From IMG/VR virus record IMGVR_UViG_2657245124_000005: 10,772 bases of DNA. One strand, given 5' to 3'. A program made the position numbers and the translations under genes. The DNA is from a virus (Duplodnaviria; Heunggongvirae; Uroviricota; Caudoviricetes). This document shows positions 2,266 to 9,759 of this stretch, one piece after another (within the stretch, counting starts at the first letter, position 1; each line of letters opens with the position of its first letter). Under the pieces are notes generated by a model, which was given only the letters and a program-made list of their open reading frames with translations, searched no databases and was not told where the DNA came from.

Positions 2266-2421
2266 TTACTCCTCAGGTTCGTAAGCTGTGAAGACAGCGA
2301 CCTCCGTCTGGCCGGTTCGGATTCGTACCTCGCAGAGGTCTTTCCTCGTTACCAGTGCCGTCACTATGACGGTTAAACAGATGACGATCAGGGCGATTAA
2401 CATCGCCTTTTGCTGCTTCAT
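2266..2421 (-). CDS. hokD: Hok-family type I toxin (HokD/RelF-like small membrane protein)
   Basis: ATG at 2421..2419 with AAGGAG 9 nt upstream; 51 aa MKQQKAMLIALIVICLTVIVTALVTRKDLCEVRIRTGQTEVAVFTAYEPEE: single N-terminal transmembrane helix plus conserved C-terminal Cys pattern of Hok/Gef proteins. The track ORF adds 19 in-frame upstream codons from an ATG at 2478. Confidence 0.8.
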   Translation of the reverse strand: MKQQKAMLIALIVICLTVIVTALVTRKDLCEVRIRTGQTEVAVFTAYEPEE

Positions 2422-2779
2422 AGCCTGCTTCTCCTTGCCTTTCGGCACGTAAGAGGCTAACCTACATGTGTCTAGCATGAAATTGGCCTCAGATTAATGT
2501 TAAGCGTCTTGCAGGACGCGTAATGTTAACTGGGGCTTTTCTCTATCTGCCTTTGGTGTTCATGCCTGAGGCAGATAGCCTCAAGCACCCGCAGCAATTC
2601 TACTTAACTCACGTCACCTCGCCAATATAAAATCAATCAGAAAGGCGATCCGTAAGAACAACAGCAAGACAATAAATTGCCATTACAGCCGCAATAGCTA
2701 GCGCACATTTGAGAACCAGCACGACAACCTCCTGTATTGGACGTACACCAGTCCTGATAAATATGAGGCTGTCTCATCA

Positions 2780-3036: not shown

Positions 3037-3906
3037 ATGAGGCTTTACATAATAGGAAATGGATTTGACATGCGTCATGGCTTACCAACAGGATACAAGC
3101 ACTTTAAGTCGTATGTAGAAAAAAATGACCAAGATCTATATGACGCGATAGAAGAATACATTCCTGCTGGGGACGAGTGGAATGAGTTAGAAAATGCTTT
3201 AGGTGAAATTGATTATGAGCTTATCCTTCAAAACAGTGAGATATTTTTGGCTTCATACAATACCGATGATTGGAGCGATGCTTATCATCACGATTACCAA
3301 TATGAAGTAAATAAAATCACACAAATGCTGTCAGCTCGTTTGAAGGAGCAATTCGCTGATTGGGTTAAAGGGATTAACATAGCCGATGCTTACAATCCTA
3401 AGCAATACATCCCGCCCATACCAAGAGAAAGCATCTATTTTTCATTTAATTATACAAATACCTTGCAGCAGATCTATGCCGTTCCAGACGAGCAAATCAT
3501 ACATATTCACGGCAATTGTAGTTACGATGACGATCTCATACTTGGTCATAGTTTTAGGGTGGAAAAGTCACTAAATCCATATATAGGACCGGATCAAGAT
3601 ACAAGAATAGCAGAGGCATACGACAGAATAAACGAATACTTCGGTAATACATTCAAGCCCAGCGAAGACATAATTAAAGAAGAAAACGTTTTTTTCTCAT
3701 CGCTTAAAAATGTGGACGAGGTCATCGTTTTAGGCCACTCGCTCGCCGAAGTTGACGGTGAATACTTTACTGAAATAAATAAAAGCATCCAAGAAAATGC
3801 TCGATGGATAGTTGCTTTATATAGAGGTGAGAAAAAATCAGGCAGTTTAGAAGATTATGGTATCAGAGGCTCAAATATTTCTTACGTACAGTATGAAGAT
3901 ATCTGA
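3037..3906 (+). CDS. AbiH-family abortive-infection protein homolog
   Basis: N-terminus MRLYIIGNGFDMRHGLPTGYKHFKSY matches the hallmark IIGNGFD..HGL..Y motif of the AbiH family (Pfam PF14253, from memory). ATG at 3037 is preceded by AAGGGA; in-frame alternative starts at GTG 2986 (preceded by AAGGAGGGG) and ATG 2998. Codon composition is AT-rich, unlike the flanking prophage genes. Confidence 0.75.
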   Translation: MRLYIIGNGFDMRHGLPTGYKHFKSYVEKNDQDLYDAIEEYIPAGDEWNELENALGEIDYELILQNSEIFLASYNTDDWSDAYHHDYQYEVNKITQMLSARLKEQFADWVKGINIADAYNPKQYIPPIPRESIYFSFNYTNTLQQIYAVPDEQIIHIHGNCSYDDDLILGHSFRVEKSLNPYIGPDQDTRIAEAYDRINEYFGNTFKPSEDIIKEENVFFSSLKNVDEVIVLGHSLAEVDGEYFTEINKSIQENARWIVALYRGEKKSGSLEDYGIRGSNISYVQYEDI

Positions 3907-3995
3907 ATGAGACTTCATATTATAACTATAATTATGTAAAAAAGGCTGGTATTTTATACCTTGAGGAAAATAGATAAGAGGAATGAGGTTTGGTT

Positions 3996-5387
3996 ATGAT
4001 GAATTATACTGATGAGTCAACTTTTCTTGAAAAGTACAAACCGTTTAGGAAGTTTTGGACAATTTTATCACCTCATTATGTATCTTTAATGCATGCACTT
4101 GCCAAAATGATAAGGGGAGGGAATCCAATTCAAGAACTACCTTCCAATGATGAGGATTTTCTTGCAGAGTATGAAACCTGTCTCAAAAATTGGAAAGACT
4201 CACAAAAAATCATATCTTTTGAGATTATTATTCGGCTGAGAGATATAAAAAGATTGGAAACTGAAAAAAAAGAGCACCATCGAAACAAGGATAAAGAAAA
4301 TAAAGAAAAGTGTATTGATGAAATAAGTTTAAAAAAATTTGAAATTCTTATTCTTCGCCGTTGTATTGACTCAATAATTTGGAGCATTCTTGATGAAGAA
4401 CACTCTAGTTTGCGGCGTTTACCTATTAATGCAAGCAATGACAATCTATCAGAAGATAACATAATTGATTCTATGGTCGCAGCCGATCTTATCAACCAGG
4501 ACAAACACTCCGTAGCGATTGTCTCTGACATGAGCACATTTGTTCATGTGGGAGATTTAGTCACCTTTAATCTACTGGATGGCTTCCAGCTCGTGGAAGT
4601 TAAAACAGGTGAAAAGAATAATGAGCTTTATGAAGCTGCTGAATTTTCTGTTATCTCAGAATGTCCGCACTTTGAAGAAAACTTCATTAACAATATGCCT
4701 GATAATGATGTTAAGCAATTTAATCGCATAAAAAGGCAAATCATTCGTGGCATGAATGTTCTGGAGGCGATTAATACTGGCGAGGGCTTTGACAACTTTC
4801 ATCAGTCTAAAGTTAAAATCAATGAGATAGATCATCCGTCTGAATTTTATACCCACCGCTTAGTTAAAATGTGGGAGATTATTCGCGGAGGAAAAAATTG
4901 GGCAATTGATACTATTGATGAATGTTTGTTCTTAGGTATGTACCGTGATTCTGAAATGGGCTTTGTTGCCTTCAATGGATGGATGGATAGTCTCGGTATA
5001 AAAAGCCCTGTTGTGAATATAAATGATTCATTCTTTGACCCTTTGTCTCGACCATTTATGAGTTTGCATCTGCCAACTGAAATGCTCTCCGATCTCATGT
5101 CGGGACAAATAATCATCGTCATGTGTTTTGACAATGAACTTTTTTTTCACCGTGCTAACAAAACGTACCCGGGTTTATATCTCCTTAGCGATGCAGCAAG
5201 AACAAAGCAGCCATTAGAAAATATTCTTCGTGTTGGTTCACAAGGGATAGCTTCTTACGTAGATGGGAATACCAGCTTTTTAGGTAATGGTATTGAATCC
5301 CGTATCCTTTTCGATCAGCAACGACCCGACAACATTATTGAGTGGAGCTATGCTAGAAGCGATCTCAAAAAGCAACATGAAGCATAA
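3996..5387 (+). CDS. unknown 463-aa protein co-oriented with AbiH-like gene; putative PD-(D/E)xK-like nuclease motif
   Basis: ATG at 3996 with GAGG 7 nt upstream (track start 3990 is TTG). Long uninterrupted AT-rich ORF, 89 bp after the AbiH-like stop. Contains HVGD(189)LV...LVE(203)VK(205) by track numbering (nt 4554..4604), the spacing of a PD-(D/E)xK core, and a Lys/Glu-rich stretch (RDIKRLETEKKEHHRNKDKENKEK). No Walker A motif seen. Confidence 0.7.
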   Translation: MMNYTDESTFLEKYKPFRKFWTILSPHYVSLMHALAKMIRGGNPIQELPSNDEDFLAEYETCLKNWKDSQKIISFEIIIRLRDIKRLETEKKEHHRNKDKENKEKCIDEISLKKFEILILRRCIDSIIWSILDEEHSSLRRLPINASNDNLSEDNIIDSMVAADLINQDKHSVAIVSDMSTFVHVGDLVTFNLLDGFQLVEVKTGEKNNELYEAAEFSVISECPHFEENFINNMPDNDVKQFNRIKRQIIRGMNVLEAINTGEGFDNFHQSKVKINEIDHPSEFYTHRLVKMWEIIRGGKNWAIDTIDECLFLGMYRDSEMGFVAFNGWMDSLGIKSPVVNINDSFFDPLSRPFMSLHLPTEMLSDLMSGQIIIVMCFDNELFFHRANKTYPGLYLLSDAARTKQPLENILRVGSQGIASYVDGNTSFLGNGIESRILFDQQRPDNIIEWSYARSDLKKQHEA

Positions 5388-9701: not shown

Positions 9702-9759
9702 TTTCTGGTGACGTTTGGCGGTATCAGTTTTACTCCGTGACTGCTCTGCCGCCGTTTTT
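9702..9759 (+). ncRNA. dicF: DicF small regulatory RNA
   Basis: TTTCTGGTGACGTTTGGCGGTATCAGTTTTACTCCGTGACTGCTCTGCCGCCGTTTTT matches the DicF sequence as I remember it. It ends in a GGCGG/CCGCC stem (9717..9721 with 9749..9753) plus T5 (9755..9759) and lies just upstream of dicB, as in Qin. Confidence 0.85.

Follow-up and report, generated by a model that had tools for sequence, protein, structure and literature searches.

The question raised by this locus is what protein is encoded by the open reading frame (ORF) at positions 3996-5387 of a 10,772-nucleotide (nt) stretch of viral DNA (IMG/VR record IMGVR_UViG_2657245124_000005, referred to in full length as the window), and how that protein might act. 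An earlier note, made from the letters of the DNA alone, had described the product as an orphan of 463 amino acids (aa) with a PD-(D/E)xK-like catalytic signature, and as the effector, if the motif were real, of a cassette in which it was possibly regulated by the AbiH-like product of the upstream gene. The gene is already known as DS-37, a validated stand-alone defence gene. The analysis described here indicates that DS-37 is a stand-alone anti-phage protein and most likely a metal-dependent PD-(D/E)xK nuclease, carried as low-G+C prophage cargo next to an independent AbiH gene, a reading that is considered probable.

Identity of the gene as DS-37

The ORF is real, and the same 1392-bp coding sequence (CDS) is present in RefSeq under WP_000982358.1, with the product name 'hypothetical protein'. 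Its length of 463 aa is counted from the ATG at 3996, which is favoured over the alternative TTG start at 3990 (465 aa in the ORF listing) by the RefSeq start and by the Shine-Dalgarno sequence that precedes it (Table 1). WP_000982358.1 is candidate SC24, named DS-37, of the DefensePredictor paper (DeWeirdt et al., Science 2026, PMC13092281; preprint 10.1101/2025.01.08.631726); the accession is given in Tables S6 and S8 of that work, and the translation of the window matches the sequence printed in Table S8 (MMNYTDESTFLEKYKPF...). SC24 was taken as a single 1392-bp CDS from an assembly of the ECOR collection, cloned under pBAD, and recorded as 'defensive TRUE' and 'replicated TRUE' in the category 'Predicted novel defense gene' (PMC13092281). 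Alone in E. coli MG1655, DS-37 gave -log(efficiency of plating) values of 4.32 on Bas69 and 1.94 on SECphi27 (Table S7, PMC13092281). The published gene and that of the window are identical in sequence and differ in their setting, as the gene was cloned alone in the paper, whereas in the window it is found downstream of AbiH in the lambdoid prophage to which it is native.

By HHblits, DS-37 was reported to be without homology to known defence proteins (PMC13092281). In Table S8 of the same paper it is labelled PDDEXK, from an HHpred match to NERD at residues 154-204, and in Table S9 it is given an AlphaFold3 predicted template modelling score (pTM) of 0.89. Exactly 14 proteins, DS-37 included, carry the PDDEXK label, and all 14 are stated to overlay on the catalytic region of EcoRI (PMC13092281). 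In the stored form of Table S8, the last two columns of the PDDEXK rows do not line up with the proteins, a 332-aa protein being given positions 412-414, so that residue positions taken from it call for caution. The table also contains the pair '201-203 / 187', which corresponds to the ExK and D positions of DS-37, and this pair suggests that the authors chose the same residues as those discussed below, D187, E201 and K203.

Conservation of the motif and breadth of the family

The candidate motif, HVGD...LVEVK, lies where it was originally placed, at nt 4554-4604, a span bounded by the codons of D187 (4554-4556) and K203 (4602-4604), with E201 at 4596-4598 and the preceding H184 at 4545-4547. 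Only the residue numbers first given (D189, E203 and K205) required correction, as they were counted from the TTG at 3990 and run two too high. Within a single sequence, such a motif is not beyond chance, and it is conservation that gives it significance: of 2000 shuffled versions of the protein, 1852 (93%) contained a loose D-x10-20-[DE]xK pattern and 13 the exact GD-x13-ExK spacing.

Conservation among homologues, which had been named beforehand as one of two points on which the proposal could be refuted, proved to be complete for D187, E201 and K203. Across 131 full-length homologues, with identities down to about 20%, these three residues and D178, G205, R244 and Q248 were 100% conserved, N208 was 98% conserved, and W129, D125, R141 and Q70 were each conserved in more than 90%. 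The catalytic-type residues were also invariant across 56 aligned representatives in which the mean column identity was 30%.

The family is far from small. A word-indexed search returned 48 close clusters from Enterobacterales and Aeromonas, all annotated as hypothetical, and when 1.84 billion representatives were searched exhaustively by profile, 681 clusters (50% identity) across phyla were returned at E<=1e-3, of which 501 were found at E<=1e-10, nearly all full length. Given these relatives, together with the published name and phenotype, the description of the protein as an orphan does not hold; it is true only in the sense that no model in Pfam, PADLOC v2, NCBIfam or PHROGs matches the DS-37 protein. 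The homologues are located in prophages, plasmids and defence islands. A tblastn search against 50,697 phage records gave no match, so that the occurrences of DS-37 are in prophages and IMG/VR contigs and not in deposited phage genomes. Four distant members (P0163, P0166, P0167 and P0184) have an additional N-terminal stretch of about 250 aa, in which no Pfam domain was found and which may represent fused sensor domains.

Predicted structure and remote sequence signals

An AlphaFold2 model computed from a 26-sequence alignment (predicted local distance difference test (pLDDT) 81, pTM 0.82) comprises an N-terminal antiparallel helical hairpin, a putative catalytic core and a C-terminal alpha/beta domain (Table 1). 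In the modelled core, a helix (residues 153-167) and a strand (172-176) are followed by a loop that bears D178, H184 and G186; D187 opens the next strand (188-192), and after a tight turn, a further strand (196-200) ends in E201-x-K203 and leads into helices 206-221 and 236-261. Read from the secondary-structure string, an Asp preceding beta2 and an ExK on beta3, within an alpha-beta-beta-beta-alpha succession, would be the pattern of a PD-(D/E)xK-like core. The tip of the hairpin, at about residues 83-117, is rich in Lys and Glu and corresponds to the charged segment that had been remarked upon before, a description borne out by the composition of residues 80-118 (13 K/R and 10 D/E among 39). 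The base of the hairpin carries the conserved residues Q70, D125 and W129. When residues 136-463 were re-predicted without residues 1-135, pLDDT was 60 and the nuclease strands were below 50; because model confidence was lowered by this deletion, the hairpin may be expected to pack against the core, to which it could contribute the first helix. Conserved residues of the C-terminal domain are G264, D266, C310, G314, Y316, P353, G432 and P444. A P-loop NTPase identity was rejected, as the Walker A motif is absent from the 463-aa protein, in agreement with the earlier note, which had seen no NTPase motif.

None of the remote sequence matches was significant alone, and those that recur or span the motif all point, weakly, to PD-(D/E)xK families. 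When 36 divergent core segments were scanned singly against Pfam, SduA_C was matched by four of them, with a best E of 0.0036, and was the only family matched by more than one. The consensus of one clade matched SduA_C in Pfam (E 0.031) over 120 collinear residues, and that of another clade matched NERD (E 0.043) and Cas4 (E 0.11), also collinearly, with the motif region covered in each case. Against PADLOC, the divergent cores gave single weak matches to SduA, Cas4_II, DruK and an endonuclease effector. When 5.8 billion proteins were queried by word index with the profile of the divergent core, all matches were fragments of the DS-37 family, and no protein labelled with a nuclease Pfam domain was reached. 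With Foldseek, the AlphaFold2 model gave nothing below E 0.06 against PDB and BFVD, and the long helical hairpin swamped the fold searches.

The likeness to the Shedu protein SduA (PF14082, SduA_C/DUF4263; EndoMS/NucS-like) lies in a defence protein with a PD-(D/E)xK core and extra domains of a regulatory kind, both putative in the case of DS-37. The Shedu core, which resembles EndoMS, has a motif I E, a motif II D, a motif III ExK and a motif IV Q. As in DS-37, the ExK follows about 14-15 residues after the D, and a conserved glutamine is found on the next long helix. This glutamine (Q295 in B. cereus, Q237 in KELB) is needed for Shedu activity, and Q248 would be its equivalent by analogy. 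However, relatives of DS-37 score at most 14.9 bits, compared with an SduA_C cut-off of 27, and the DS-37 protein itself gave no match at E<=1 to the Shedu models in Pfam and PADLOC. The core of DS-37 is also central, with the hairpin before it and a 200-aa C-terminal domain after it, whereas the Shedu nuclease is C-terminal, behind variable sensor domains. As DS-37 falls short of the Pfam threshold and has another domain order, it is not filed as Shedu. Likeness to NERD (PF08378) and Cas4 (PF01930) consists of the weak matches, collinear in each case, that cover motifs II-III(-IV); these matches are, however, not significant, the architecture differs, and DS-37 is without the Fe-S cysteines of Cas4. 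The record of pO111_2, considered as a possible location of BAI39103.1, is a P1-like phage-plasmid without an annotated Shedu.

Linkage to AbiH

The gene upstream of DS-37 matches the AbiH family in Pfam (PF14253, E=6.6e-69, 233 bits against a gathering cut-off of 30.9, with 258 of 260 profile positions covered) and in PADLOC (E=1.3e-27), and the RefSeq product name agrees. AbiH is predicted to be a Sir2-like effector, and it is a single-gene system in Lactococcus (review PMC13064643). The pair in the window is a published recurrent one: in the 'syntons' paper (2026, PMC13639185), which gives co-localisation statistics only, 240 of 341 DS-37 instances (71%) were found to colocalise with AbiH, whereas DS-37 was present at only 12% of AbiH instances, and its authors propose synergy or an accessory role. 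The present survey adds to this the divergent members that stand alone or with HEPN genes (Abi_2, DUF3644).

Among 5,426 complete E. coli genomes, the cassette was counted as intact in 65, AbiH in 65 and DS-37 in 64, and all cassette copies were at least 95% identical. This 1:1 linkage is that of one recent lineage and reflects descent. About 51 further E. coli genomes contain 5' remnants of AbiH (the first 527, 191 or 63 nt, at >=99% identity) without DS-37, and the ends of these remnants look like recurrent deletion endpoints. In NZ_CP195401, IS1 is inserted in AbiH and DS-37 is intact. The cassette was also found at about 90% identity on plasmids of Enterobacter, Klebsiella and Raoultella, where the neighbouring genes are phage-like, and a survey of phage-plasmids has recorded AbiH and DS-37 on SSU5-like elements. 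A scan of the spacer between the two genes revealed no G+C-rich terminator, and promoter-like sites were no more numerous than in shuffled sequence. AbiH and its partner do not form an obligate system, as relatives of DS-37 occur alone or otherwise partnered and AbiH occurs mostly without DS-37.

Partners of distant relatives

The genes upstream of DS-37 relatives were surveyed in 56 superfamily clusters from 124 loci, counting any same-strand ORF within 150 bp. An upstream ORF was present in 21 of the 56 clusters, encoding AbiH (1), Abi_2 (3), DUF3644 (1), integrases (5), Mrr_cat, DUF3800 and others; 23 clusters had none, and the remaining 12 were at contig ends, leaving 44 informative clusters. 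Abi_2 was located 16-18 bp upstream of the relative on plasmids and contigs of Pantoea and Erwinia and, in two other clades, either 40 bp upstream or overlapping (-41 bp, maximal ORF, locus L012), and DUF3644 was located 17 bp upstream of a relative in Dickeya. Both Abi2 and DUF3644 are HEPN families. Abi_2 (56/57/78% identity) and DS-37 (44/43/72%) show parallel divergence, and that pair is therefore old. Partnerless relatives were found on a P2-like prophage, on an IncP-like plasmid, in an Aeromonas island next to AAA_15/UvrD genes and on a Rahnella plasmid, and within a clade of 485-aa proteins, members 60-79% identical to each other carry Abi_2, DUF3644 or no partner, the solitary ones being those of the P2-like prophage, the IncP-like plasmid and the Aeromonas island. 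Linkage to Abi-type toxins is recurrent, not obligatory, and this, together with the published single-gene phenotype, argues against an effector regulated by AbiH as the primary reading.

Several individual loci were also recorded. On the B. cereus plasmid NZ_CP129006 (locus L017, 3060-6166), a DS-37 relative split into three ORFs is situated 34 bp downstream of a gene for a 564-aa reverse transcriptase (RVT_1, E=1.6e-10), with genes of an ABC-three-component system nearby; the reverse transcriptase may be of the Abi type, paired with a decayed DS-37. On two human-gut metagenome contigs (L055 and L074, 3105-7151), a distant homologue is found in an apparent three-gene operon, in which a 229-aa protein without a Pfam match, the DS-37-like gene and a 660-aa ORF follow one another with overlaps of -4 and -11 nt. 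The 296-aa upstream partner at L041 (2732-3622) has no Pfam match and contains the R-x4-H motif RNGVIH, comparable with RNRLSH of the Abi_2 partner and RDQAVH of the DUF3644 partner, and from this motif it may be another HEPN toxin. In Aeromonas media (L006, 5863-7320), a 439-aa gene call looks N-terminally truncated, the ORF extending to 485 aa as in the rest of its clade. Next to the L006 homologue are a pP_pnuc nuclease gene and genes for AAA_15/AAA_21 and a UvrD helicase, the last two making up a combination typical of Gabija-type systems.

Proposed mechanism and alternative explanations

In the mechanism proposed for DS-37, D187, E201 and K203 would make up the active site, D178 probably contributing as well, together with R244 and Q248 on the following helix, in a core held between the N-terminal coiled-coil hairpin and the C-terminal domain of about 200 aa. 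The hairpin and the C-terminal domain would handle oligomerisation and/or hold the enzyme off until a phage-specific cue is received, after which phage DNA, or both phage and host DNA, would be cleaved. From the hairpin, dimers or tetramers would be predicted. We infer that DS-37 is a nuclease, that DNA is its substrate, that the flanking domains have regulatory roles and that a trigger is needed; the last of these is suggested because the published table, which lists effect rows only, has rows for DS-37 with just two phages.

Several results weigh against a nuclease. No profile match reached a curated threshold, and DS-37 itself had none in Pfam; PDB sequences searched by hidden Markov model and phmmer, with queries from the close family, the divergent core and the two clade consensuses, gave nothing relevant; and the probability of the published HHpred match to NERD was only 0.47 (PMC13092281). 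The main text of that paper, which omits DS-37, contains no DS-37 catalytic mutant or biochemical assay. Motifs II, III and candidate IV are invariant, whereas the acidic residue of motif I lacks a confident assignment, with D125 or D178 as candidates, and the spacing from K203 to the proposed motif IV glutamine is 45 residues, compared with 29 in Shedu. It could be proposed that the D/E/K constellation is not a nuclease site at all, and that DS-37, its endonuclease-like domain being degenerate or repurposed, acts for example as a sensor of nucleic acid or phage protein or as a coiled-coil scaffold. This would be consistent with the lack of any significant fold or profile match to a nuclease, with more than half of DS-37 lying outside the putative core, and with the existence of inactive restriction endonuclease-like domains in defence proteins, such as Pfam NA-iREase1, to which a neighbouring protein has a weak match. 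However, the absolute conservation of D178, D187, E201, K203, R244 and Q248 across hundreds of clusters is typical of catalysis, the weak matches that recur or span the motif go to PD-(D/E)xK families, the others being isolated singles, and the published structural overlay on EcoRI points the same way, so that a non-catalytic role is regarded as very improbable. Of the PD-(D/E)xK assignment made in the earlier note, the defence function, the invariant D...ExK, the modelled beta2-beta3 hairpin and the published PDDEXK label speak in its favour, and the fold searches yielded no confirmation of it; a nuclease is thus a plausible reading, in line with the published label, but an unproven one.

It could also be supposed that DS-37 and the upstream Abi gene form a two-gene system, in which DS-37 is an accessory or sensor component and AbiH, Abi_2 or DUF3644 is the toxic effector, an idea close to the original cassette proposal with the roles possibly reversed. 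The published colocalisation and the synergy or accessory role suggested with it, the joint decay and near 1:1 presence of intact AbiH and DS-37 in E. coli, and the presence of the cassette on plasmids of other genera would all fit such a system, as would the same-strand arrangement across an 89-nt gap that holds no terminator, the close or overlapping HEPN-family genes of other clades and the parallel divergence of Abi_2 and DS-37. Against this, DS-37 defends alone, few AbiH genes have DS-37 beside them, 23 of the 44 informative clusters lack a tightly linked gene upstream and in 5 more an integrase is the only such gene, closely related proteins of the 485-aa clade differ in their partner or have none, and the E. 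coli linkage is a matter of descent from one recent lineage. The two-gene system is therefore held to be unlikely. The cassette proposal in its original form, with DS-37 as the effector regulated by AbiH, is not supported, given the defence conferred by DS-37 cloned alone, homologues that are partnerless or have unrelated partners, and AbiH being itself a predicted effector. A broader idea, rated as distinctly unlikely, is that DS-37-family nucleases are a portable module repeatedly wired downstream of suicide effectors (AbiH, Abi_2, DUF3644 and possibly the Bacillus Abi-type reverse transcriptase), the two acting as one system. If this were true, sensing or DNA damage by the nuclease would, for example, license the toxin, or the toxin would back up the nuclease, and DS-37 function would extend beyond the published single-gene phenotype.

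Genomic setting

The window is 100% identical at the DNA level to part of NZ_CP019903, in which the same CDS is annotated, and belongs to an E. coli lambdoid prophage of the Qin/Rac type, with DS-37 located in the early region. On one side, the flank in NZ_CP019903 carries hokD and genes for a DUF968 protein, RusA and an antiterminator, and on the other side, genes for a DUF977 protein, a replisome organizer, YdaT and cI/cro-like regulators. AbiH and DS-37 form a two-gene insert on the plus strand between hokD/sok and the replication genes, with a G+C content of 36.8% compared with 47-50% in the flanks. DicF is expected in a Qin-type prophage, and dicB and ydfD are found about 1.2 kb downstream of DicF in the matching genome.

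Table 1. Positions in the window of DS-37, its parts and the neighbouring features.
Feature	Position	Strand	Evidence or remark
hokD toxin ORF	2266-2478	-	Directly left of the defence cassette
sok antisense RNA	2416-2590	-	Rfam RF01794, 119.9 bits
AbiH gene	3037..3906 (RefSeq start 2998)	+	Separate known abortive-infection gene
AbiH/DS-37 spacer, 89 nt	3907..3995	+	GAGG Shine-Dalgarno 7 nt before the DS-37 ATG
DS-37 gene, 463 aa plus stop	3996..5387	+	ORF listing; = WP_000982358.1, validated single-gene anti-phage system
N-terminal antiparallel helical hairpin, residues 52-132	4149..4391	+	AlphaFold2 helices 52-96 and 100-132, pLDDT 93-98
Putative PD-(D/E)xK catalytic core, residues 150-262	4443..4781	+	AlphaFold2 secondary structure, sub-threshold profile matches
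Motif II D187 through motif III E201-x-K203 (HVGD...LVEVK)	4554..4604	+	Invariant in 26, 56 and 131 sequences
R244-x3-Q248 on helix 236-261, candidate motif IV glutamine	4725..4739	+	100% conserved
C-terminal alpha/beta domain, residues 263-463	4782..5384	+	AlphaFold2; no family or fold match
DicF antisense small RNA	9703-9754	+	Rfam RF00039, 72.5 bits

Significance for the DS-37 family

A real immune gene was found here from raw sequence, although its discovery, its PDDEXK label and its pairing with AbiH have already been published. The present analysis adds how broad the family is, which residues are invariant, that the fold apparently relies on the N-terminal hairpin, and that Abi-type partners are exchanged. 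The family, with 681 clusters at 50% identity and neither a Pfam nor a PADLOC model, greatly exceeds the instances that had been detected before. D178, D187, E201, K203, R244 and Q248 provide a residue list for mutagenesis, and the exchange of AbiH for HEPN toxins among distant members offers a concrete test of cooperation between neighbouring defence genes.
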